Virus record (IMG/VR): IMGVR_UViG_3300013902_000267
Length of the DNA: 64,000 nucleotides
Strand: one strand, 5' to 3'
Source: a virus
Lineage: Duplodnaviria; Heunggongvirae; Uroviricota; Caudoviricetes
This document shows positions 14,711-58,808 of the stretch, piece after piece. Numbering within the stretch: position 1 is the first letter of the stretch; every line of letters begins with the position of its first letter. Made by a program: the position numbers and the translations under genes. Below the pieces are notes generated by a model that saw only the letters and a program-made list of their open reading frames with translations, did not search any database and was not told the origin of the DNA.

Positions 14711-14974
14711 TTACATCACTTTTCTATAAAATACATTTCCTTCTTCTTCAAATCCTTCAATAGAAGAAATATCATAATCAGTATATTCTTTTCCATCAGA
14801 AAAATCTGTTAACTTTCCATTTTCTGATTTAATAAACCCAGATACTGTCTCATCACCACATGGATGAATTTCAAATACACCATTAATTTCTTTAATATCA
14901 GAAATACTTCTAACTTTATCGCCTAAAAATATTTTATTATTCTTGCGTGATATATTAACATTATTAAATTCCAT
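14711..14974 (-). CDS. Hypothetical protein
   Basis: Track ORF in an operon. Confidence 0.65.
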   Translation of the reverse strand: MEFNNVNISRKNNKIFLGDKVRSISDIKEINGVFEIHPCGDETVSGFIKSENGKLTDFSDGKEYTDYDISSIEGFEEEGNVFYRKVM

Positions 14975-14985
14975 ATTACTTCTAA

Positions 14986-15354
14986 TTAAAGTTTCTCAAC
15001 AATTACAGTAGGATTAATAACAAAATCATACAAATCTGTCTTAATCTCAGTATTATTAACTTCAGTAATAGTTAATATATTATAATCATAATATACTTTA
15101 TCACCAACTTTAAGTGTTGACGCAAGAACTTTTTCAGATTCACCATAATTAAAAGTATCTCGCTCAAATTGATTCATTCCATCTGTAGGAATAGGACAAA
15201 TTGCATCAAAATTATCAATCAACCATTCTTTTGATACATTACCTGAGACAATCTGAGGTCCACCAAGCTTAGAAAGTCCAAGATATGCCTTTACTTTAGA
15301 CATCTTATCTGCATACTCAGAAACACTATACCATTTAATATTATTGTTATTCAT
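14986..15354 (-). CDS. Hypothetical protein
   Basis: Track ORF downstream of a TAnnTTTG promoter. Confidence 0.7.
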   Translation of the reverse strand: MNNNNIKWYSVSEYADKMSKVKAYLGLSKLGGPQIVSGNVSKEWLIDNFDAICPIPTDGMNQFERDTFNYGESEKVLASTLKVGDKVYYDYNILTITEVNNTEIKTDLYDFVINPTVIVEKL

Positions 15355-15401
15355 AATTGTATATCTTTTTAATTGTTCAACTTATTTGTTTATTAACAAT
15401 A

Positions 15402-15433: not shown

Positions 15434-16690
15434 TTATTCATAAGAATTTTCATAATCTTTTAATTTTTCTTTCGCATATTCTATAGTTATATGAAATTCT
15501 TTTTCATTAGACGCCGGTAAATTATACATTGCATCATCCATAAGATTCTCTACTATTCCTCTTAACCCCCTAGCGCCTAATTTATTCTTAATAGATAACT
15601 TAACTATATAATCATAAACTTCATCATCTATTATAAGTTCAATACCATCTAATTTAAACAACTTCTTAAATTGTTTAATAATAGCATTTTTCGGTTCTGT
15701 AAGAATTCTCTTCAAATCATCTTCAGTTAAAGGATTAAGATATGTAATAATAGGAAGTCTACCTATTAATTCTGGAATCAAACCATAATTCTTTAAATCT
15801 TCCGCATTTACATATTTAAATATGTTTTCTTTATTATCAGAAAAATCTTTCTTATCCTTTGATACAAATCCTAATGTAGATTTATTAAGTCGTCTCTCTA
15901 TAATTTTATTCAAACCAACAAAAGCACCACCACAAATAAATAAAATATTTTTTGTATCAACCTCTACCATTTTAGCATCCGGGTGTTTTCTTCCTCCCTT
16001 TGGTGGAACATTTACAACAGAACCTTCAATTATTTTAAGTAATGCTTGTTGAACGCCTTCACCTGAAACATCTCTTGTTATAGATGGATTTCCTCCGGAT
16101 TTCCTTGCAATCTTATCAATCTCATCAAGAAATACTATTCCGTGTTCTGCTTTCTTAACATCATAATCACATGCTTGGAGAAGTCTTGTGATTGCAGTCT
16201 CAACATCATCACCAACGTATCCAGCTTCAGTGATAGAATTAGAATCCACTATACTAATTGGTACATCTAACATTTTAGCAATAGACTTAACCAAAAGTGT
16301 TTTACCAGTACCAGTGTCTCCCAAAAGTATACAGTTACTCTTCTCAATCTCTACATCATCAAATCCTTTTTGCTTAATTCTCTTATAATGATTATAAACT
16401 GCAACTGCTAACCTTTGTTTCGCTTTATCCTGACCAATTACATATTGATCCAAAAATTCTTTAATCTCTGTAGGTTTTTTTACATCATCCTTATGGAAAT
16501 TATCATCTGGTGATAAAAACTGTGTATTATGATTTACTATACTCAAATTCATATTGTAAATCTGGTCACAACATTCATTACAAATACTTCCATATTCACC
16601 ATTAAAAAGTAATGCAACTTGGTCTTTCGTCTTACCACAAAATGAACACTTATTTTCTTTTTTATTTGTATCTTTCTTTTTTTCTGCCAT
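15434..16690 (-). CDS. clpX: ATP-dependent Clp protease ATP-binding subunit ClpX
   Basis: CSFCGK zinc finger, [36 protein letters not shown]. Confidence 0.97.
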
Positions 16691-16793
16691 ATATCTTTTA
16701 ATTAAAAAATCTTAAATAACAACAATAATTATACCATAATATTATAATATTGTTTACATTTATAAATAATAAAAATAACCGGTTAATTAATAT

Positions 16794-16991
16794 ATGAAAA
16801 CTATTAAAAAGTCTTCAGTTAAAAATAAAAATATAAAAGGTAAAATAGGATAGGATGGTGGTTATTATGTTGATAATTGTCCAGTCTTAATCCCTAAGGA
16901 AAATATTAAGTTTTTCACTGCTATGCAAAAAGCATGTTCAATAAATCCATATGGAAAATATGGTAATGCATGTAATGTTAAATTATTGTGA
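16794..16991 (+). CDS. Small hypothetical protein, 65 aa
   Basis: ATG to TGA with one TAG; ATAAATA 26 nt upstream. Confidence 0.55.
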
Positions 16992-17140
16992 TAATAACTA
17001 ATAAAACATAAAACTCGAAATTTGATACAATATCTCTCCTGCATCGCGTCAAAATCTCTTTACCTTATAGTTATTAGTCTTAATTAAAAATAATGTGATA
17101 CAGAGAGAATTTTATTAAATAATAATTTTCATAAAATAAA

Positions 17141-17182
17141 AAAGAGATTAATAAGTTTTGTTTATTGCTTATTAATCTCTTT
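17141..17182. terminator. Bidirectional terminator
   Basis: aaagagattaataag / cttattaatctcttt. Confidence 0.8.
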
Positions 17183-17206
17183 ACTTTTCTATTTAATATA
17201 ATTTCA

Positions 17207-17260
17207 TTAAAACTTCAAACCATGTATCATTTCAAAAACCTTAATCTTATTATTTATGCC
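17207..17260 (-). repeat. Copy of the last 18 codons of the UvsY-like gene (direct repeat of 18552-18605), in the TnpB guide position
   Basis: 49/54 nt identical; all 5 differences synonymous (GINNKIKVFEMIHGLKF*). Confidence 0.95.
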
Positions 17261-17409
17261 AATATTTGTGTTTATATACTAATATATAAACAATTATTTC
17301 TTGTTTCATAGACACTCTACTTTTTAGTATAATCATTAGTAATGATTTAGTCATCCATAGTTGGTATCTCCGCAAGCGTAAATTCGGGTAAATATACACC
17401 TATTATATT
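17241..17409 (-). ncRNA. Putative TnpB omega-RNA (scaffold plus ~20-nt guide)
   Basis: Directly 3' of tnpB; IS605-like right-end sequence (cccgaatttacgc..ctatggatgac..aaaaagtag) and subterminal hairpin tgtttatat/atataaaca; ends approximate. Confidence 0.7.
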
Positions 17410-18543
17410 TTAATAATTTATTTGTTTTAATCCTTCTGCTAAAATATTTAATGAAGCATTATAATCTCTATCAATCTCTTTACCACAATGTGGACATATC
17501 CATTCTCTCTAACTTAATTTTAAATCTTTATAAATATGTCTACAATTATGGCAAGTTTTAGATGAAGGATAGAATCTATTTATTATAACCAGCTATTTTC
17601 CATACCATCTACATTTATATTCTAACTATTTTCTAAATTCAAATAAAGATAACTCTTGAATAGATTTAGCAAGTTTATGATTAGACATCATTCCATTTAC
17701 ATTTAAATCTTCAATACAGATAACTTGATTTTCATTAACTAGTTTTGAAGTGATTTGATGTAAATATGTATTTCTCTAATTTTTTATTTTCTCATGAACT
17801 TTTGCAATTTTAATTCTAACTTTATTCCGATTATTACTTCCTTTCTATTTCTTACTTAACAACCTCTATAATTTCTTTAATTTCTTTTCTTGATTTCTAT
17901 AGAAATGTTTATTTTCATATCTATTTCCATTAGAATCAACGATAAAATCTTTTATTCCTAAATCTAAACCTATTACGGTATCTAATTTTTCTTTTTGTAT
18001 AATATTATAATCTATTAAAATAAACAAATAATATTTTTCTGTAGAAGTTTTAATAAGCGTAATTGAATGTATTTTATTTTGATTATGATTTAAATATATT
18101 TCATCTTTTTTAGAACATTTAAATAATATATTCTTTAACTATTTAATTAATGTTATCCTATTACCATTAATTTTCTTCTTTTTAAATTTAAATATAGTTC
18201 TTGTAAATCTACAACTTTGCTTAATATCTTTCTTTGATTTGAATTTAGGATAACCATTATGTAATTTAAAGAAATTATCATATGCTTTAATTAAATCCTA
18301 CATTGATTGCTATAAACACATAGCATATACATCATTTAAAAAAGTATATTCATCTTGTTTTTTTAAATTAGTCAAATATTTACCTAATTGTGTCCATGAT
18401 ACAACTTGTTTATTCTACTCATACTATGACTTCTTATAATCCAATAATTTATTATATATAAGTCTACAACAACCTAACTGTTTAGAAATAAATTCTTTCT
18501 AAACATTATCAGGATATATTCGTATTTTAATATATTTTAACAT
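17410..18543 (-). CDS. tnpB: RNA-guided endonuclease TnpB (IS200/IS605 family), 377 aa
   Basis: About 12 in-frame TAGs; N-terminal IRIYP..Q..FI..QLGCCR, RuvC GLDLG / IEDL / DRDYNA, CxxC..CPxC; absent from the track. Confidence 0.93.
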
Positions 18544-18551
18544 AATATTTT

Positions 18552-19082
18552 TTAAAATTTTAAACCATGTATCATTTCAAAAACTTTAATCTTATTGTTT
18601 ATACCGTAAATAATATTATCAATAGTTGAGATGGTATCTTTCATATACTTACAGAAATTATCCAATAAATCAACTGATTCTTTTTCTGCTGATAGTTGAG
18701 ATTCAATCTGTAAATTAATAGCACTTTCATTCGTATATCTAATTCCAGATGAACCAGATTTTAAAGCTAAATAAATTCCTGATGCTTTAGACTTATAATC
18801 TCTCGTTTGCTTTTGTAATATCTTTGCTGTTCCATAAAATAAGTCTATTGCTTCTTGCCTCTTTAAATAAACTTCATTCATCAAACCATCAATAGATTTC
18901 AAATCTTTCATTCGTTCATTTAAATTCTTAATAATATCTGTCCACTTATCTTGAAGATTACTCAATGAATTTTCCAATGAATTTTGTTGTGAATTAATAT
19001 TATTATTCTGATTAGTTTGTTGAACTTGATTATTATCTATAGAATTATTATTTTCTGTTACTACTTCATTTTCTTTATCCAT
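18552..19082 (-). CDS. Helical protein, UvsY-like recombination mediator candidate
   Basis: Intact track ORF; size and C-terminal pattern resemble T4 UvsY (inference). Confidence 0.5.
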   Translation of the reverse strand: MDKENEVVTENNNSIDNNQVQQTNQNNNINSQQNSLENSLSNLQDKWTDIIKNLNERMKDLKSIDGLMNEVYLKRQEAIDLFYGTAKILQKQTRDYKSKASGIYLALKSGSSGIRYTNESAINLQIESQLSAEKESVDLLDNFCKYMKDTISTIDNIIYGINNKIKVFEMIHGLKF

Positions 19083-19751
19083 AAATCAAAAGTTTATAAT
19101 AATACTTTATATATTATATCATTTAATAAAAATAAAGTTTTATTCTCAAAAAGAATTTCAACCAATAAAAAGAAAGAGTCAAAGAAAAAGTTTTCAAAAA
19201 GAAATCATAAATTAAACTTAAATAAAAATTGATCCTACAATATTTATCTCTCTAAAAAACTATGTTCAAAAAGAAAGTAGGCAAAGAAAAAGAACCAAAA
19301 AGAAATTAATTTTTCAAATCTAAATTTAATTTTCTTTATTTAATTTCTTAAATATCTATCATTACCTTAATATCTTAATATTAATTATACTTCACTTTTC
19401 AAAAAAAGTCTACTTTTTGTTTAAATATTTTTAATAATTTTTAAAAATAATTTATAACTTATTGATAATCAATATATAATTTTTATTAATTTATACAAAT
19501 TCTAAATAATATTTAATTAAAATAAAATATTTTTACAATTCTCCATGACTTACCTTACTAAATATTAAAAATAAATAAAAAAATTAATTTTAAACTAATT
19601 TTCTTTATATAATTTCTTAAATATCTTAGATTCTCAAAATACCAGTATTTATTTTACTTACTTTTGGAGAAAAAGTCTACATTTTTAAGAAATATTTTTA
19701 ATAAAAATTGAAAAAAGTTTATAACTAATTGAAACTAAATAATTTAGATAT

Positions 19752-49778: not shown

Positions 49779-49869
49779 ACACAGATGTGCGAGTGGTTGA
49801 TGCAGTTGGTCTCCAAAACCAATAACGGTATATATGTACTGTTCGAGGGTTCGAATCCTTCTCTGTGTG
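49779..49869 (+). tRNA. tRNA-Trp(CCA) with a long variable arm
   Basis: acacaga/tctgtgt acceptor; ttggt-CTCCAAA-accaa; 7-bp V-arm; TTCGAAT T-loop. Confidence 0.8.
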
Positions 49870-50061
49870 CAAATTAAAAATTTATACAAATAAAATAAGA
49901 ATAATATGACAAAGTTAATACGACATATACATAAGCATCGAATACAGTTATAAATTGTTGATCTTATATTATACATTATTATATATAGGATTGACATAAG
50001 AAATCATGTTCCTATATGTTTAATGATATATTGTTGTATTATATTTAGGAACACTCCATAG

Positions 50062-50136
50062 TGGGGTGTAACTCAAAGGTCAGAGTGGTATTCTTAATAA
50101 GAATACTGGTAGTGGGTTCAACTCCCACCACCCCAA
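50062..50136 (+). tRNA. tRNA-Ile(AAT)-like, 6-bp anticodon stem
   Basis: tggggtg/cacccca; gtattc-TTAATAA-gaatac; anticodon register ambiguous. Confidence 0.6.
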
Positions 50137-50160
50137 CTAAAAATAAATTAAATTAGAAAA

Positions 50161-50409
50161 ATGGAAAAGATTAATTTAAAATCTTTAGTTAAGGGTACAG
50201 CAGACATTGTTTGTGTAAATTCAGGTGGTATTGTTGTTTATAACATTACATCAGATGATAATCATATATATTAGTTAGAAATAGATTTATCAGATAAACA
50301 TGATGTAGGTGAAACAGCAGCATTCTTGCCACATTATGATAGAGCTCTTATTCTTATGAGATGGATTAGACGTTCTATAGATAATGATACTATAATAAAG
50401 ATTAAATAA
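50161..50409 (+). CDS. Hypothetical protein, 82 aa
   Basis: Open with one TAG; C-terminal LMRWIRR. Confidence 0.7.
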
Positions 50410-50461
50410 AAATATTTTTGATTTTTTATCAGACAAATTTTTTTATTTGAAATATATTATG

Positions 50462-50624
50462 TATCTTTGTATTGTTAATAAAATAACAAACAAAAATTGT
50501 TCTTTGAAATATTGATAACAAAATAAGAAAATAAAAATCTTGAAATTTTTTCTTAGAATATTTTTTTAATTCAAAATAAAGATGTATCTTTGAATTGTAA
50601 TTAAAAAATAAAGTTCTTTGAAAT
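50462..50624 (+). promoter_or_regulatory. Tandem TATCTTTG promoters, each followed by a boxA-like GTTCTTTGAAAT
   Basis: Promoter elements 50462-50469 and 50585-50592; boxA-like 50499-50510 and 50613-50624. Confidence 0.7.
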
Positions 50625-51065
50625 TTTGATAGACAAATATAGAAATTATTCATATAATATATGTTATGTTTAATGTTACTGAGAAGTTAATCAGATATAA
50701 TATTGAACTTCAAATTTAAAAGTAACTTCATAAATAATTTAATTATTGTTTATGTGAGGAAACAAACATAACTATATGAATTTATAATAATGATGCTGCC
50801 AAAGAAAAATATGATTGAAAAATATCAGGCTCTATATAAGATTTCTTATATTAGACTGCTTGTCCAAAGTGCATCAGGAGATATATATAGAATATTAAAG
50901 TCCTTTTAATATTGCTATTGCTTTCAAAAAGATATATCTCCACGAGCTGAATAGAACAAATGAACGACTCAAGCTAATGTTTGGTTATATACATAAATCT
51001 TATAAGAATAAGAAGTGTCACTGTAACGGTCGGATGTGTAGTTAACTGACTTTAAAGTTATATTT

Positions 51066-51136
51066 GGGTATTTAGCTGGAAGGTCAAGCATCTGACTGTT
51101 AATCAGAAGACGTGGGTTCGATTCCCTCAGTACCCG
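51066..51136 (+). tRNA. tRNA-Asn(GTT)
   Basis: tctga-CTGTTAA-tcaga; cloverleaf. Confidence 0.85.
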
Positions 51137-51484
51137 CAAGTTAAAAACATAACATTTATATATGAAGGCTCGTACCTTTCAAATTCAGATGATACCGTCA
51201 AGGCGGAGATATATAATGTTTCTGAATATGTTTTTGATGATTGATTAAATAATAACGTAGTTTAACGGTAAATGAAGTCTTACGTTAAAGTAAGGGTTAA
51301 ACAATTTAAGAAATAAAAACAGCGCTATTTCTTTTATTTCTTAAAAAGAAGGGTTCATCACTGCGTATTGCAACTATGAAGTAAGGGAAGTGCAACTCCA
51401 CCCTGTTAGTTATTTAATCTTATTTTTAATTTAAATTAAATTTTTATTATAGTATACCACTTGTGAAAGCAGTATACTAGATTT

Positions 51485-51557
51485 AGATGGTTAACTCAGT
51501 GGTTAGAGTTCTCGGCTTACATCCGAGCTGTCAGGAGTTCGAATCTCTTACCATCTA
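51485..51557 (+). tRNA. tRNA-Val(TAC)
   Basis: ctcgg-CTTACAT-ccgag; cloverleaf. Confidence 0.92.
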
Positions 51558-51841
51558 CCTTTTGGGTTTGTCTTTCGTATAGACATGGTATTACTATGGT
51601 CCTAAAGAAAAGAGAAGTAACGAGGTATGAAAATGAAATATAGATAAGGGGAAAGGAGCATTAACTGCGAGTGCAGTGTGCAAAATGGAACTGGAGTGAA
51701 AGATGATTAGTGAAGCGAAAATTGAAGTATGTATTGTAAGGATAAAGGTGTGTTCGAATCCATCAAGACAACTAATAAAAATATTTATAATTTAAATAGA
51801 CTTTTATATGTTTATTCAATATAAATATTGAATCATAAAAT

Positions 51842-52055
51842 ATGAAGATATTTATGTTTTATATATTGAGTATTTATGAATTGAGTCGTTAGAAGAATTT
51901 AATTTATAAATTATGTATGTAAAAATTAAATAAATTCATATTTTTAAAAAGATAAGATTTAGATAATTATTTTTCTATATAGTTAATATATAGTTTTTAA
52001 GGTTAACTTCATATATATTATAAAATTTATATATGTTATTAAGTTAAATATCTAA
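51842..52055 (+). repeat. Dispersed ~210-bp repeat, copy B
   Basis: Matches the reverse complement of 3339-3551; 26-codon ORF at 51842-51922. Confidence 0.9.
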
Positions 52056-52111
52056 ATATTGTTTTTAACTCAAAAGAATTTTATAAGGTATTATCTAAAT
52101 CTCTATAAATT

Positions 52112-52185
52112 GGGGGTATAGCTCAGTTGGCTAGAGCATCTGCTTTGCACGCAGAGGGTCATGGTTTTGAGTACCATTATCTCCA
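52112..52185 (+). tRNA. tRNA-Ala(TGC)
   Basis: G3:U70; tctgc-TTTGCAC-gcaga; T-loop TTTGAGT variant. Confidence 0.9.
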
Positions 52186-52515
52186 CGCTAGGTGTGAAAC
52201 ATTACAGTAATAAGGATTAAACTATATTATTAGGCAATATACTTAATTACTTATTAAATAAATGAATTAAAGTAAACATGTAGGATATATTATTAAGTCT
52301 AAATATAAAATATATTTGAAGGCGTATCTTAAATTCATTCTGGTTAGAACCTATTTTAAATCCTATAGGTGAACGGGCAGCGGTGAATGTTTCAGGTAAA
52401 ATTTAATGAAATATATTATCCCACAGGGCAAGGGCGTGCTATTAAAATACCGTAAAGCCGGTAAGCTATAAGAGTATTAAAAGGTTCAATTCCTTTTGTA
52501 TATTTCATTAATTTT

Positions 52516-52598
52516 GGGTGAGTGTCCCGAGTGGCAAAGGGGGCTGACTGTAAATCAGCTGTCATTTGACTTCGTAGGTTCGAGTCCTACCTCACCCA
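52516..52598 (+). tRNA. tRNA-Tyr(GTA)
   Basis: gctga-CTGTAAA-tcagc; long variable arm. Confidence 0.95.
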
Positions 52599-52603
52599 CA
52601 AAT

Positions 52604-53020
52604 ATGTCAGAATTAAAAGAATATATATGTGAATCTTGTAATAAAAAGTTTTATTCTACTAAGACTTTTAGAAAAGATAGACATATAAAATGTGATGAAT
52701 GCAAACAAAAACGTAAACATTCTAAAGAAAATGAATTAAATAGTATATTAGATTGTTCTAAAAGAACAATATCTAAAATATTGAAACGTTCAAAAATAGG
52801 ATGTGCAATATGTGGGTGGAATGAATCTACTTGTGATATTCATCATATAATAGAAAAATCTAATGGTGGAACTGATGATATTTCTAATTTAATTATTGTA
52901 TGTCCAAATCATCATAGAATGATACATACGAATAAATGCTATTCAATAGATTATTTACAAAGTTTATCTATTAAAAATACATTTAATAATTGGAAAGATT
53001 ATTATCATCCAGAAAGATAA
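52604..53020 (+). CDS. HNH endonuclease, 138 aa
   Basis: CAICG..DIHHI..GG..NL..CPNHH; ATG 5 nt after tRNA-Tyr. Confidence 0.85.
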   Translation: MSELKEYICESCNKKFYSTKTFRKDRHIKCDECKQKRKHSKENELNSILDCSKRTISKILKRSKIGCAICGWNESTCDIHHIIEKSNGGTDDISNLIIVCPNHHRMIHTNKCYSIDYLQSLSIKNTFNNWKDYYHPER

Positions 53021-53042
53021 TTAGTTATGTAAGTTAAGATAT

Positions 53043-53117
53043 GGTGCGTTAGTTCAGTTTGGTCAGAATGCTACACTGTCACTGTAGAGGTCACGGATTC
53101 GAGTTCCGTACGCACCG
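53043..53117 (+). tRNA. tRNA-Asp(GTC)
   Basis: ctaca-CTGTCAC-tgtag. Confidence 0.93.
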
Positions 53118-53126
53118 CAAAAATTT

Positions 53127-53362
53127 GGTTATATAGTTCAAAATAGGTGGAGTAGTTAATAACTGGTAATTGACATGAATATCTATTGGAAGTAATATAA
53201 AAACTAATATGAGATGTTTGCGGATCAAATGGTATTATTCTTAAGCTCTTTTACCGTTATTAGTTTTTATATTATGAGTAAGTAGAGAATACAATAATTA
53301 TCGTTTACTCATAGAATACCCTGGGTCGAGGGAGATTAATGGTTCGAATCCATTTATAACCG
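53127..53362 (+). ncRNA. tRNA-like RNA with a ~170-nt structured insert in the D-loop
   Basis: ggttata/tataacc acceptor; aatgg-TTCGAAT-ccatt; gttc/gaat D-stem; anticodon unclear (Pro-like). Confidence 0.6.
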
Positions 53363-53396
53363 CTATGAATATTATTAGATATGTTTATTGAAACAT

Positions 53397-53467
53397 TGGA
53401 CTATAGTATAATGGTAGTACAGAAGATTTTGGTTCTTCTAGACTGGGTCCGAATCCCGGTAGTCCAA
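53397..53467 (+). tRNA. tRNA-Gln(TTG)
   Basis: gaaga-TTTTGGT-tcttc; tggacta/tagtcca. Confidence 0.85.
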
Positions 53468-53507
53468 CGATTTTAGTGAATATTTAAAAATAATAAAAAT
53501 ATTATAT

Positions 53508-53580
53508 TGCGGGATGGAGCAGTTGGTAGCTTGTCGGGCTCATAACCCGAAGGTCGTGTGTTCGAGTCACACTCCCGCTA
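53508..53580 (+). tRNA. Initiator tRNA-Met(CAT)
   Basis: 1:72 mismatch; GGG/CCC anticodon stem. Confidence 0.92.
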
Positions 53581-53589
53581 CTATTAAAT

Positions 53590-53664
53590 GGACCTTGCGT
53601 ATGGCTGGTGCCTGTACATCGGACTGAAACTCCGGGGGTGGTTGTTCGATTCAACCAGGGTCCA
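53590..53664 (+). tRNA. tRNA-Phe(GAA)
   Basis: tcgga-CTGAAAC-tccgg; atypical D-arm. Confidence 0.82.
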
Positions 53665-53995
53665 CAAGTTATTAGAAATATACTTTACAGTTTTAATGTC
53701 GTATATTATCTAATAATGATATAAACAAGTATAGACTTCCAAGTAGAATAATGAGTAAGTTTATAATTATATGCTAGCTAATTTATAGACAGAAGAACTG
53801 ATAAGGGTTACAGGTCAATTATTGAAAGGAATTGGTTTGAACATTAGTTCATAGATGTGAAGAGCAGCAGATTTCGTAAGAAGCCATAAGTTGACACACA
53901 ACAATTTCGTAAAACAGCGCAAGTGCCTAATAGCGAGTATTCCTTTATATAAAGGGTGAAAAAGTCTGTGTCTCGTAAATCTACTTGTTTAATTT

Positions 53996-54069
53996 TGGGT
54001 GGTAGTTCAGATGGTTAGAGCGCATCCCTGATAAGGATGAAGTCGTGAGTTCAAGTCTCACCCACCCAA
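53996..54069 (+). tRNA. tRNA-Ile(GAT)
   Basis: catcc-CTGATAA-ggatg. Confidence 0.92.
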
Positions 54070-54257
54070 CAAATATTTAATAAAAAAGTTGTTAATAATA
54101 TAAACTTTTAAATATTATATTCATATAAGATTATGAATTTAGTTCTTTGAAATATGAAAGAAAATAATTTATAAAATATTTTTTAATTACAAATAAAAAT
54201 AAAAGATGTATCTTTTTAATGTAATTAAAATAGTTATGTAAATTAAAATATAGAGTT

Positions 54258-54330
54258 GTTCCGTTAGCTCATCTGGCAGAGCACGATACTTTTAATATCG
54301 GGGTAACGAGTTCGAGTCTCGTACGGAACA
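54258..54330 (+). tRNA. tRNA-Lys(TTT)
   Basis: cgata-CTTTTAA-tatcg. Confidence 0.92.
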
Positions 54331-54422
54331 CTATAACTTGATTAGTATATCTAAAATTAATTTATTAAAAAATATAAACATTTACTTATAAATTGAATAT
54401 AATATAAGAGTTTAAAAATTAC

Positions 54423-54496
54423 ACTACAGTAACTCAGTCGGTTAGAGTTCCAAGCTTATACCTTGGCGGTCGGGGGTTCAAGTCCCTCCTGTAGTA
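54423..54496 (+). tRNA. tRNA-Ile(TAT)
   Basis: ccaag-CTTATAC-cttgg; actacag/ctgtagt. Confidence 0.88.
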
Positions 54497-54692
54497 CAAA
54501 TTGTAAATGAATTAAAGTATTTGACTTATGATGAGACTTTAATTAGTAAGAAATATAAGTGTTTATGAAAGTTTATTTATGATGATGGAAGTCAATACAG
54601 CAAACATATATAATTATGATAATGTTTACTAGAAAAAGAAAACTCAAATACTTAAAAATAAATGACTTCTGATTTTTATAATTTTGGTGAAT

Positions 54693-54766
54693 GGTTCTGT
54701 AGCTCAGTTGAACAGAGCAGTGCTCTTCTAAAGCACGGGTCGTGAGTTTGATCCTCACCAGAATCA
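54693..54766 (+). tRNA. tRNA-Arg(TCT)
   Basis: gtgct-CTTCTAA-agcac. Confidence 0.88.
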
Positions 54767-54811
54767 CATAATGGATTAAAGATAAATATATGAAACAATT
54801 AATTTTTATAT

Positions 54812-55108
54812 ATGATTAATCCTGAAGTAATTATCAGTTAGGAAGACGTGAAAATAATTGATAGTTATAAAATAAAATCTATTAAAAACATGAAATGTGT
54901 TATTAATAGTATACGTGAAAAATGTGATAAAACTTATGTTATTCATAAAAGGAGTATGTATAGTTTAATAAATGAATGGAGATCACATAATCTTCTTTAT
55001 GATTTGCATATAAAAAGGGAATAGACAAAAGATGTGGATTTAGATAATGAAACATTATTCAGAAAAATATGTTATTCAATATTATCTATATTTTATCTAC
55101 ATTTTTAA
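54812..55108 (+). CDS. Hypothetical protein, 98 aa
   Basis: Open with 2 TAGs; EWRSHNLLY motif. Confidence 0.65.
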
Positions 55109-55443
55109 TATATAACGAGAGTTAGTAGTATAGCATTGTCCGGACCATTATTAAAAGTTTTAATTATTTCTTTTAGTAATGATATGCTGATTTAAATTAT
55201 AAATAAATAGATTTAAAAAATAATTATGAATATAAGTAATTTAACCTTATATTTAAGAGAGACTGAAAGATTATTTTAATCTATTGATAATTAGTTTCAG
55301 GAGTTGAATATAGTTTTAATCATGATATGTAGTTCTATTAAAATAAACTTCATGATATAGGAAGTATATGTTTTCTCGGTAAAGTATACGCCTGAATATT
55401 AGAATAAAAAGAATAGTGTCCGTAGATAAACTATTCAAATTTT

Positions 55444-55658
55444 GCTTCGATAGTTCAGTTGGTTAGAACGTCTGACTGTATACAGGAAACAACCTGATTA
55501 AATTAAACTACATAATGCTGTTAGGTATCAGACTTGCGGACGCAATATTGATTTATAACTATTATAGTAATAAATTTAAATCGCTGAAAGTTTAGTTGGT
55601 TCGAATCCAATTTATGTAGCTAATCAGAAAGTCGTAGGTTCGAGTCCTACTCGAAGCG
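55444..55658 (+). tRNA. tRNA-Asn(GTT) interrupted by a 141-nt anticodon-loop insert (55480-55620)
   Basis: gcttcga/tcgaagc acceptor; tctga..tcaga stem; loop CTGT|TAA; G73. Confidence 0.8.
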
Positions 55659-55663
55659 CAAAT

Positions 55664-56320
55664 ATGAGAGAAAAAGAATGTCGTATATGCCATATTCATG
55701 GTAATACATTATTTTCTTTATATACATATAATAATAAAATACATTGGGTATGTAATAAATGTTAGACAGAATATGTATAGCGACGTCGAGAACATTTAAA
55801 ATTATTATCAGTTGCATATAAAGGAAATAAATGTCAATGTTGTGGATATAATAAATGTATATCTGCATTAGAATTTCACCATATAGATCCTAATAAAAAA
55901 GAGTTTGGAATAGGATATGCAGGTTATACACATGGATGGAATGATGTTAAATTAGAATTAGATAAATGTATTTTAGTATGCGCAAATTGTCATAGAGAAA
56001 TACATGCTAATATAATAAAATGCCCAACTGAAATTATAAAAGATGAAGAAAATGTTAATATTTTATTAAATAAATTTAAATTTGATTCTATAAATAGGAA
56101 TAATGATTATAAAAAATTAGTTGAAAAAATAGAACCAATTAAAAATTATACAATTCCTACAAAAGAAGAATTAATACAATTATTTAAGAAATATATTACA
56201 TTTGAAAATATTGGTAGATTATATGGTATTACAGGAAATGCCATTAAAAAATGGTGTAAAAAATATGATTTACCATATAAATCAAAAGAATTAAAAGAAT
56301 ATATAAATAAATTACCATAA
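55664..56320 (+). CDS. HNH endonuclease with C-terminal HTH, 218 aa
   Basis: CQCCG..LEFHH..KCILVCANCHREIH; 2 TAGs. Confidence 0.85.
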
Positions 56321-56464
56321 ACGTCATGAGCCTTCTTAGAAAAAGGCGGTTTTAGTAACTGTACGAAGTATGTTAATACACGTGGTTAATATATATTTCA
56401 ATAAGGGAAATTATAATGGATGTTGGCTAAGCAACTTCTTATATACGGTAATTTTTTAATATTT

Positions 56465-56568
56465 GGGAATATCTTCTCGTTGGTATGAGAACTCTACGGT
56501 AAGTAGAGTGCATTTGCAAACCGGTTGAAATGATCTTGCTTCACAGTGTTCGAATCCTGTTGTTCCCA
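56465..56568 (+). ncRNA. Atypical tRNA-like RNA, 104 nt
   Basis: gggaata/tgttccc acceptor; TTCGAAT T-loop; ctcta-CGGTAAG-tagag; enlarged variable region. Confidence 0.5.
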
Positions 56569-56668
56569 CAAATATTTTGAAAATATTTTTGATAAATATA
56601 TAGACTTTACTATAAAGATTACATATAATAATTATGAATTGAAAATAATTAAGATACGCAAATTAACT

Positions 56669-56740
56669 GGTGGGTTCGTATAGCGGTTAGTACTAGAGAT
56701 TTTCATTCTCTAAACAGGAGTTCGACTCTCCTACCCACTA
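56669..56740 (+). tRNA. tRNA-Glu(TTC)
   Basis: agaga-TTTTCAT-tctct. Confidence 0.9.
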
Positions 56741-56752
56741 CTAATCAATAAT

Positions 56753-57748
56753 ATGAAATAGAATTTAGAATTTTTATCAGATGACGAATTAATATAGGAA
56801 TATAGAAATTGTAATTATTCTTTAAAAGCAGTTGATAAGAAATATAATAAATCTGGAAATACTTTATTACGATTATTTAGAAAACGTAATATAGATTATA
56901 ATAAGATAAAGAATGATTATTTATTACAATAGAAACAATTTGAAGAAAGTAAAGTTTTATATTGTGAGAATTGTGGTAAAGTAATAGATGGTTATTATGG
57001 TTCTGGAAGATTTTGTAATAGATATTGTGCAACTGCATATGGCAATTCACATAGAGCAAAAAGAACAGAAGAATCAAAAAAGAAAACATCTATTAGTGTA
57101 AAAAATTCTATTAAATGTTAGATAGCTGCTGAACGTTCAAGAAAAATATATTAGTGCAAATATTGTAATAAAGATTTTTCTGTGTTTGATATACGCAATA
57201 TTAGAGGAAGAACATATTGTTCAAAAGAATGTAAACACAAATATTTATCTGCACATACTGGTGGTTATCGAGAAGGTTCTGGAAGAGGCAAACAAGGATG
57301 GTATAAAGGAATTCATTGTGATAGTTCATGGGAATTAGCATTTCTTGTTTATTATAAAGATCATAATTTAAATATAGAACGTTGTAAAGAAAAAAGGTCT
57401 TATATTTGGAATAATGAAGTTCATTCATATTATCCTGATTTTATAACAGATGACGGGATAATAGAAATAAAAGGATATTCTACAGATTAGTGGAAATTAA
57501 AAGAAAACTAGAATCCGGATGTAAAAGTTTTATATAAAGATGATATAAAACCATATTTAGATTATGTAATAAATACATATGGTACTGATTTTATTAAATT
57601 ATATGATGGTTATAATCCAAAATTAGATTTGAAAAATTATACTTATGTATGGGTTCATAATGAAAAAGAGAATCATATGATTAGAACAGAATTATATGAT
57701 GAATATATAAATAATGGTTATATAAGAGGAAGAAAAACTTTTAAATAA
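56753..57748 (+). CDS. TnsA-like PD-(D/E)xK homing endonuclease with zinc modules, 331 aa
   Basis: CENCGK..GSGRFC; DSSWELAF..YYPDF..IEIKGY; several TAGs. Confidence 0.8.
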
Positions 57749-57825
57749 AAAATAGTTAAAAATAAACAAGATTTTAAATTTACGTTATTAAATTAAAAAG
57801 TTTCTTTATGAAATTAATTTTAAAT

Positions 57826-57906
57826 ACTCCTATAGGCGAATTGGTCTAGCCACTAGATTAAGGATCTAGGTTTAATTACGTCTCGGTTCGAGTCCGAGTA
57901 GGAGTA
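57826..57906 (+). tRNA. tRNA-Leu(AAG)
   Basis: ctaga-TTAAGGA-tctag; class II; actccta/taggagt. Confidence 0.85.
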
Positions 57907-57987
57907 CAATAATAATATAAAATATTTTCTTATTTTATTATCAATTTCAAAAATAAATTAGATAAATAATAAGTTGAAATAATTTAT

Positions 57988-58060
57988 GCTGGATTAGCAC
58001 AGTTGGTAGTGCGACGCACTTGTAATGCGTAGGTCGTTGGTTCGAATCCGACATTCAGCT
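57988..58060 (+). tRNA. tRNA-Thr(TGT)
   Basis: acgca-CTTGTAA-tgcgt. Confidence 0.93.
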
Positions 58061-58401
58061 CAACATAACTTAATAATGTTTTTATATTGCTGAATAATTT
58101 GTTAGCAGTAAATAAGGCATTTAGGTTATATCTGAAAAGATATGATTTAGAGTAATCAATATTAAGAAGCATAAAGTTGAATTAGCCACAGTTGGCCAAC
58201 TGTGAGTGACGTAAGAAAGGTCAAATCGTTTTAATGGAATGATGCTTGTAGCCTTTGAAGGTAATCAATCCTTCCTACATAAGAAGTTAGCGTCATGAAC
58301 TAACTTGTAGTGACTGAATAATGTGCTTAATATGTAATGAGGTTTGATGGTAGTCAGGAATCCATCTATGAATTCATTATTATTTTTATGTTTTTATATA
58401 T

Positions 58402-58475
58402 CGCGCCTTGGAGCAGTTGGTAGCTCGCCAGGCTCATAACCTGGAGGTCCCTGATTCAAGTTCAGGAGTGCGCAA
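58402..58475 (+). tRNA. Second initiator-like tRNA-Met(CAT)
   Basis: C1:A72; ccagg-CTCATAA-cctgg; imperfect acceptor. Confidence 0.75.
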
Positions 58476-58597
58476 CTAGTATGATGCATTTATTTTATGA
58501 ATATAGATAACTGTTCGCGATTGTGTATCTATAAAGTAATATTATAAATGAGGAAATATGAATGACAGTGATAATAATTGTACAATAAAACACTGCA

Positions 58598-58667
58598 TCC
58601 TGTTTGTTGTAACGAAAGCATTTTCTCTTGAAAAGTGAAGGTTACGGTTTAATTCCGTAGACAGGAA
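58598..58667 (+). tRNA. Degenerate tRNA-Lys(CTT)-like
   Basis: tcctgtt/gacagga acceptor; tacgg/ccgta T-stem; weak D-arm. Confidence 0.45.
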
Positions 58668-58808
58668 CAAATTTTAATAGTCTATATTTAATTATATAGA
58701 ATCGTAACTACAAGAACATTAAATATTTTTAGTGGAAAGCCTTGGAGACCATCGTATTGGTACTGAGTTATAAGGTTCTCACAGAATATAAACCTTAATT
58801 TTTTGTTT

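Follow-up and report, generated by a model that had tools for sequence, protein, structure and literature searches.

In the 64,000-nucleotide stretch of IMG/VR virus record IMGVR_UViG_3300013902_000267 analyzed here (the window), which belongs to the Caudoviricetes and is 98.9% identical to Prevotella phage Lak-B1, a conserved phage gene has a gene for the nuclease TnpB embedded in its 3' end, and the end of this host gene is present in two versions. The native gene end (X) lies displaced behind tnpB and its omega-RNA scaffold, where its first 16-20 nucleotides occupy the guide position, and a second version of the last 18 codons (X') completes the translated gene in front of the nuclease. The locus carries a TnpB but is not a canonical insertion sequence (IS). 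Taken together, the anatomy of the locus and the comparison of Lak phages fit an RNA-guided homing or exclusion element, a reading that we consider moderately probable.

Two versions of one gene end flank the tnpB cassette

All features of the locus lie on the minus strand in the order host gene, tnpB, scaffold, second gene-end copy and terminator (Table 1). The cassette is flanked by a 54-nucleotide imperfect direct repeat, of which empty sites carry one copy. Both copies translate identically into 17 residues followed by a stop, the host-gene end coding for GINNKIKVFEMIHGLKF, and they differ at repeat positions 3, 9, 21, 45 and 48, in each case synonymously and at the third position of a codon. 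Given that synonymous changes make up 17% of the possible single-base changes in the repeat, finding five of five by chance has a probability of ~1.4e-4. The sequence preceding X is the end of the scaffold (...AAATATT), and that preceding X' is TTTAC. The layout and the five synonymous differences given in a preliminary description of this DNA were thus confirmed by coordinates, by translation and by comparison of the two copies.

The same arrangement with identical copies was found in Lak-B1, B3, B6 and B9 and in assemblies from IMG/VR, JGI and ENA; another 35 contigs also carry it. It is therefore no assembly artefact but real, and it is fixed in the Lak-B lineage, being present in every Lak-B-type assembly examined. 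With the host gene completed by X', tnpB follows 8 nucleotides behind without room for a promoter-bearing left end, and scaffold and X precede the terminator, a layout that fits a single transcription unit. The terminator hairpin was missed by a consensus terminator scan, the loop limit of which was 8 nucleotides against an actual loop of 12 nucleotides.

Table 1. Positions of the locus features in the window.
Feature	Position	Strand	Remarks
Host gene	19082..18552	minus	176 amino acids; no TAG codons
TTTAC	18606..18610	minus	directly 5' of the upstream copy; contains TTAC
Upstream 54-nucleotide copy (X')	18552..18605	minus	translated end of the host gene
8-nucleotide spacer	18551..18544	minus	from host stop codon to tnpB ATG; matches the final bases of the canonical left end
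tnpB	18543..17410	minus	377 amino acids; 12 in-frame TAG codons read as Gln
omega-RNA scaffold	17261..17404	minus	conserved core plus two hairpins, one variable and one terminal
Downstream 54-nucleotide copy (X)	17260..17207	minus	displaced native gene end that runs directly into the native downstream flank
Host gene's native terminator	17182..17130	minus	15-bp stem, 12-nucleotide loop, T-run; -14.8 kcal/mol (folding)

The native gene end starts exactly at the guide position

A conserved non-coding scaffold of ~145 nucleotides follows tnpB and is common to 11 paralogous copies. When the 3' regions of these 11 copies were aligned, conservation ended exactly at 17261/17260, and the flank beyond this boundary was specific to each copy. 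Two hairpins of the scaffold keep their pairing with different sequences among the paralogues, and in every copy 8-9 unpaired nucleotides separate the last hairpin from the point beyond which the paralogues are unrelated. Because scaffold conservation stops at this boundary, X starts exactly at the guide position, in agreement with the earlier proposal that the downstream copy serves as guide. RNAalifold applied to the scaffolds recovered the conserved core and not the variable hairpins, for which single-sequence folds were used, and an Rfam scan of 16500-19500 with E values up to 1 matched no family. A contig of 151 nucleotides from an RNA library spans 17389..17239 across the scaffold/guide boundary without a mismatch; at a depth of ~2, and with DNA carry-over possible, it is a weak indication of such a transcript. 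Four public sequencing runs were matched as contigs, from which RNA ends and levels are not readable.

The encoded protein has the complete make-up of a TnpB. The Pfam families HTH_OrfB_IS605, OrfB_IS605 (RuvC) and Cas12f1-like_TNB all match above their curated cut-offs (E values of 1e-16, 1e-25 and 3e-25, respectively), PHROG 506 matches with an E value of 4e-123, and residues 5-372 align end to end with ISDra2 TnpB (4e-61). The acidic RuvC residues sit in the conserved motifs DLG (D194), IEDLN (E279) and DRD (D358 or D360), and both CxxC pairs of the zinc finger are kept (C331/C334 and C350/C353). A solved TnpB-like nuclease has the same motifs at matching positions, and the orthologue of L085 retains them (L numbers denote our loci). 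The intact RuvC acids and the roughly 12 TAG codons noticed beforehand were both found, the number of TAG codons being exactly 12, and the frame has no other stops. Because of these codons, TnpB would be made only in the late phase of infection, when the code is changed. The window has 19 tRNA genes arrayed on its plus strand at 49779-58668; none of the 19 has a CUA anticodon, so that a TAG suppressor is not in the window.

TnpB is under purifying selection and its putative guide is conserved

Between the window and the L085 orthologue, tnpB has a ratio of nonsynonymous to synonymous substitution rates (dN/dS) of 0.12 at a synonymous divergence (dS) of 0.57, with no stops and with catalytic and zinc motifs kept, indicating that tnpB is a selected gene and not a relic. 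Among the Lak-B genomes, 3 synonymous and 0 extra nonsynonymous changes were found in L078. The untranslated X differs between Lak-B and L085 at 5 of 54 sites, against ~21 expected at the synonymous rate (P 6e-7). X would thus appear to be either constrained or to have been coding until recently.

Descent of the occupied alleles was examined through their flanks. A single clade of occupied alleles was rejected both by the left 615 nucleotides (approximately unbiased test, p-AU 0.024) and by the right 1200 nucleotides (p-AU 0.0015), and the flank trees group the occupied L085 with the empty L082 with support of 95/95. The occupied alleles thus do not form one clade, which implies gains, losses or recombination. 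Elsewhere in the window, two patches (14800-15400 and 16600-16950) diverge from Lak-B1 by up to 55-64 differences per 200 nucleotides against a background of 1.1%, and they look like mosaic exchange.

The locus copy has neither a left end nor a transposase

In the Lak phages, which are uncultivated, each complete genome has three or four related copies of tnpB, and IMG/VR adds more. The canonical Lak copies share a left end of ~190 nucleotides with a long-range covarying stem. By comparison with these paralogues, the locus copy keeps only the last ~8 nucleotides and is devoid of the other ~180, confirming that no IS left end is present, as had been stated. The Y1 transposase family PF01797 had no match in the complete phage genomes Lak-B1, A1, A2 and C1, whereas 6 of 14 control genomes were positive; the reported absence of tnpA from the neighbourhood therefore extends to these four genomes. 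IS200/IS605 elements produce no target duplication (reviewed in PMC13565253). The cassette fails three features that define this family, namely the left end, TnpA and insertion without target duplication.

The left-end stem was followed in L009, L013, L006, L010, L048, L049, L056, L057 and L059, where its arms are ~90 nucleotides apart and lie ~190 nucleotides upstream of the tnpB ATG. The arms change together between copies (GGCCGGTTAA/TTAACCGGCC versus GGTAGGTTGG/CAACCTACC), which is strong covariation, and the stem may act as a TnpA substrate, in promoter control or as RNA.

Two canonical paralogues are inserted after TTAC

The ends of the element L010 (MK250015.1 169406-170533, in Lak-A1) are known to the exact base because its flanks are 99-100% identical to the empty sites in Lak-A2 and Lak-C1 (L063 and L064). 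The empty site reads ...ATTATTAC|AACAATG..., placing the element after TTAC, and in the independent copy L006 TTAC precedes the same left-end start. TTAC, the motif named in the preliminary description, is thus the insertion motif of two canonical paralogues, which suggests it as the transposon-adjacent motif (TAM) of the TnpB at the locus. Moreover, the Lak-C1 empty site consists of TTAC and a perfect match to the flank of L010, indicating that such guide/target pairs exist in Lak phages. TAC accounts for 4.6% of the tyrosine codons in the window, so the codon that creates TTAC at the junction is a rare one.

Some further features of the canonical copies are recorded here. L010 is a recent canonical insertion that separates a gene from its final 10 codons, and its right end repeats 8 nucleotides of its left flank (ATTATTAC). 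The right ends of L009 (MK250020.1 230749-231876) and L013 (324456-325580) finish in CTATG; in L009 the terminal ATG occupies the position of the start codon of the downstream gene in empty genomes. At L013, the first 25 codons of a small gene have given way to the insertion and to a GNAT-like gene that the compared Lak-A/C genomes do not have.

Empty and occupied alleles in related phages

The homologous site shows presence/absence polymorphism, with three occupied and about ten empty lineages. The existence of empty alleles, which the preliminary description had proposed to check across Lak genomes, was established in Lak-A1, A2 and C1 and in contigs from IMG/VR and JGI; protein clusters led to further empty alleles in closer relatives. 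The occupied lineages are Lak-B, L085/L086 (a 531-kb genome with 87% DNA identity) and L080/L093. The L085 junction reads TTTAT, and position 9 again distinguishes X' from X, but with the two states exchanged in comparison with Lak-B.

In the nearest empty lineage, L087, the gene body is 94% identical and the downstream flank is identical, and the allele matches X at all five diagnostic positions. The expectation that an empty allele would resemble the guide copy and not the upstream copy is thereby borne out for the nearest lineage. Judged by these comparisons, X is the native gene end of each host lineage, and X' carries bases of foreign or ancestral type, a pattern that is clearest towards tnpB, at the 3' end of X'. 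Over 33 nucleotides from its start X' equals the distant allele L071, and it is one base away from L072 over its first 22 nucleotides. On this resemblance X' is imported natural variation and not new recoding, and the idea of recoding as the element's own invention had to be given up.

The junction codon is TAT in all 15 empty alleles, and TAC was found only in the occupied Lak-B and L080. The guide is one mismatch away from the L087 allele, which is without TTAC; by contrast, the resident X' has TTAC but mismatches the guide at positions 3 and 9. A contig from a DNA run joins 17252 directly to 18598, representing an empty allele that is ~92-94% identical to the window and fits the L087 type. 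Generation of the empty allele by deletion between X' and X was considered and rejected, as L087 is of X type from position 3 onward, which is impossible by such a deletion. Pattern scans of the IMG/VR and JGI metagenomes for all junction alleles returned only Lak-B occupied alleles and distant empty alleles.

The third occupied lineage was seen in two Logan contigs, L080 (ERR2145019) and L093 (ERR2145015), in which the host gene is 94% identical to that of the window. TTTAC and an X' copy are followed after 13 nucleotides by a tnpB only 74% identical in DNA, and both contigs end inside tnpB. Either the site was occupied a second time, independently, or a paralogue has converted the tnpB there. 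The exact junction pattern had 0 matches in IMG/VR, and the best full-length protein was 76% identical.

In Lak-A1 and Lak-C1 (L002 2899-4343, and L003), 1.44 kb of DNA is inserted at a distance of 0.4 kb downstream from the empty site. A duplication of ~80 bp, which corresponds to ~16698-16778 of the window, flanks this insertion, and the insertion encodes on the other strand a protein of 460 amino acids with 8 TAG codons and no Pfam or PHROG match.

The interrupted gene has a nearly invariant C-terminus

The C-terminal 17 residues of the host protein are nearly invariant among 20 homologues (invariant residues: I154, D155, N156, I158, G160, N162, K164, K166, E169, G173 and K175), and truncation of the protein would therefore probably be costly. 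The label 'UvsY-like' proposed for this gene stands on weak matches: PF11056 (UvsY) is touched by 2 of the 20 homologues, with a best E value of 5e-4, and a single Atlas feature match (score 0.93) leads to a cluster with 21% UvsY members. The host protein itself had no match in Pfam, PHROG or PDB.

A proposed homing mechanism

The element would be an IS200/IS605 derivative composed of tnpB, its scaffold and, on the 5' side, its own version of the host gene's final 18 codons, placed after TTAC in the sequence ...TTTAC|GG... of a conserved phage gene. Two routes of origin can be envisaged. In the first, an ordinary insertion at TTAC would have been followed by recombination replacing the left end with the gene end of another lineage. 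In the second, a circle of tnpB, scaffold and X would have integrated by homologous recombination.

With the cassette in place, the native terminator would now end a transcription unit of gene, tnpB, omega-RNA and guide, and the transcript would be processed into an omega-RNA guided by the first 16-20 nucleotides of X. The resulting TnpB-omega-RNA complex would be programmed against TTAC plus the native gene end in related co-infecting phages. Once cut, such an allele would either be repaired from the occupied genome and thereby receive X', tnpB and scaffold, which amounts to homing in which X' is co-converted, or the competitor would be lost. Only products that inherit the protective differences of X', or that lose the TAM, would escape further cutting. 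In Lak-B the resident allele would be protected by the mismatches at guide positions 3 and 9, and in the L085 lineage by loss of the TAM (TAC to TAT) together with a mismatch at position 9.

In its fullest form, this reading describes a natural RNA-guided 'home-and-rescue' gene drive of megaphages, in which transposition has been abandoned, the wild-type gene end is stored as guide and a cut-resistant replacement is carried along. Such a drive would spread, or would exclude rivals, by cutting the uninterrupted alleles of co-infecting phages, and its guide would take on the sequence of each new host lineage. We advance this fuller form tentatively, as a possibility somewhat short of even.

Evidence against homing and rival explanations

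Several observations weigh against homing. To begin with, the TAM is taken from paralogues that are only 78-84% identical to the locus copy, and the empty sites of L009 and L013 in distant clades end in ...ATATG and ...CAATG instead of TTAC; these ends match the right-end terminus CTATG, and extra DNA is found to the left of the left ends of both elements. In addition, X' in Lak-B is set apart from the guide by only two mismatches. With respect to targets, an empty allele combining TTTAC with a perfect match to the guide had been predicted, and none was found among the sampled alleles: besides the TAT junction, every empty allele has at least one mismatch in the first 16 guide nucleotides, the best having one. 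All sampled empty alleles are accordingly predicted to be poor substrates. The divergence of tnpB is like that of its flanks (87.7% versus 82-90% identity; dS 0.57 versus 0.43), and this parallel divergence fits long vertical descent as well as it fits spread. The element is fixed in all Lak-B contigs read, with no ongoing spread visible. Between the window and Lak-B1, the element tract has 1 difference in 1.7 kb, which is the 5th percentile of 1.7-kb windows; low divergence from Lak-B1 was therefore rejected as a sign of a recent sweep.

Finally, a second tnpB of Lak-B raises the possibility that the duplication stems from integration of the cassette and not from selection for gene rescue. 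L017 (MK250020.1 217349-218476, minus strand), also seen as L050/L051, is without most of the left end as well, and it is flanked by a 46-nucleotide imperfect direct repeat of intergenic, non-coding sequence that is present once at the empty site of the Lak-A/C genomes (L038-L040). Because this repeat lies in non-coding DNA, a duplication can arise without gene rescue. The earlier claim that the upstream copy keeps the host gene intact therefore holds in so far as X' completes the gene, and the rescue itself may be a by-product of integration.

This leads to the main rival explanation, in which the 54-nucleotide repeat is a scar of cassette entry, either by Campbell-type integration of a circle or by unequal recombination after an ordinary insertion. 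TnpB would then have been kept for another role, such as action on other targets or rival phages through other guides or some general benefit, and it would not be homing at this site today. The repeat around L017, the parallel divergence of element and flanks, the fixation in Lak-B and the failure to find a cleavable empty allele among those sampled all suit such a scar. It is at odds, however, with the conservation of X far beyond that of neutral sequence and with the confinement of the rare TAC that makes TTAC to occupied alleles. It also sits poorly with position 9 of the guide, where each of the two full-length occupied lineages has a difference between X and X' and the states are swapped, and with the rejection by the flank trees of a single clade of occupied alleles. 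We regard this explanation as unlikely, though serious.

Y1 transposases need the left end, as established for IS608 and ISDra2. An ordinary IS200/IS605 insertion moved in trans by a host-encoded TnpA, with the duplication being incidental, is favoured by the occurrence of canonical copies with full left ends in the same genomes, and the recent gain of L010 indicates that some source of transposition or transfer is active. However, the locus copy has lost the left end together with the covarying stem, no TnpA is encoded in the four complete Lak genomes, and a 54-nucleotide duplication is found here where IS200/IS605 elements make none (PMC13565253), making this explanation quite improbable.

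An immobile, decaying relic of an old insertion without present function, which the age of the element (dS 0.57 between orthologues) and its fixation in Lak-B would allow, is disfavoured as very improbable by the dN/dS of 0.12, by the open frame and the catalytic and zinc motifs conserved in both lineages, by the scaffold hairpins that keep pairing and by the 3 synonymous and 0 extra nonsynonymous changes in L078. Among all the explanations, RNA-guided homing or exclusion is the one that we favour.

Comparison with known systems

TnpB and omega-RNA of the IS200/IS605 family act as a homing nuclease for transposon retention, as described for ISDra2, IS608 and Geobacillus elements (PMC8612924; bioRxiv 10.1101/2023.03.14.532601). 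The TnpB of the locus belongs to the same family with the same domain order, its scaffold likewise follows the gene, and its guide would likewise be drawn from the right-end flank. The proposed target would also be a TAM together with the uninterrupted site, with TTAC as insertion motif as in IS608. Unlike canonical elements, the locus has no TnpA and no left end, so that there is no excision to repair and its 'empty site' can only be another genome, and it carries a 54-nucleotide replacement of the host gene end with a flanking duplication.

Spread independent of TnpA has been seen in laboratory work in which TnpB drives complete IS elements through multicopy plasmids by cutting the replicon copies that are without the element (PMC11870625), a behaviour that the locus would share. 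Such a drive needs a polyploid setting, which a phage burst or co-infection offers. A 'transposon non-restorative homing' has been proposed for co-infecting phages and plasmids, the phage case being theoretical only (PMC13565253). Neither of these two accounts describes a host-gene rescue copy or self-protection by mismatches, and in the literature available to us we found no TnpB cassette described in which a host gene end is duplicated and bears mismatches.

Among phages, the free-standing homing endonucleases SegF, SegB and Mob of T-even phages perform intronless homing with co-conversion (PMC13565253). In these systems, as proposed here, a nuclease gene lies between or within conserved phage genes, the allele of a relative is cut in co-infection, the resident allele is guarded by nearby differences and the distribution is patchy. 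The T-even enzymes recognize their targets through protein contacts; by contrast, the locus encodes a RuvC-type TnpB whose RNA guide would be a fossil copy of the target. A further likeness is offered by a mobile endonuclease element in mitochondrial atp6 of Allomyces, which Paquin et al. are said to have described in 1994 and which reportedly brings a foreign copy of the C-terminus with it. There, too, the 3' end of an essential gene is said to be affected, with a foreign replacement C-terminus and the original end left as a downstream remnant; that element is reportedly a protein-guided endonuclease of an organelle genome whose remnant has no role, whereas here the remnant would be the guide.

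Synthetic home-and-rescue and cleave-and-rescue CRISPR drives target the wild-type allele and carry a recoded rescue version that cannot be cut. The same logic of wild-type targeting combined with a guide-resistant rescue version would apply to the locus. Those drives are engineered, use Cas9 and operate in diploid animals, whereas the arrangement described here is natural, uses borrowed variation as its 'recoding' and has an activity predicted from sequence.

Implications for phage biology

The locus shows a possible natural form of a phage homing TnpB, in which transposase and left end are gone and the nuclease is housed in the transcription unit of its host gene. In this form the target is kept as guide, and the host gene stays whole thanks to a rescue copy of naturally divergent sequence. 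If the element is active, engineered rescue-type gene drives would have a counterpart in nature, and the element would explain the persistence of transposase-less tnpB genes in large phages. An active element of this kind would also represent a route from a transposon nuclease to an inter-phage weapon or drive, which is relevant to the origin of type V CRISPR.

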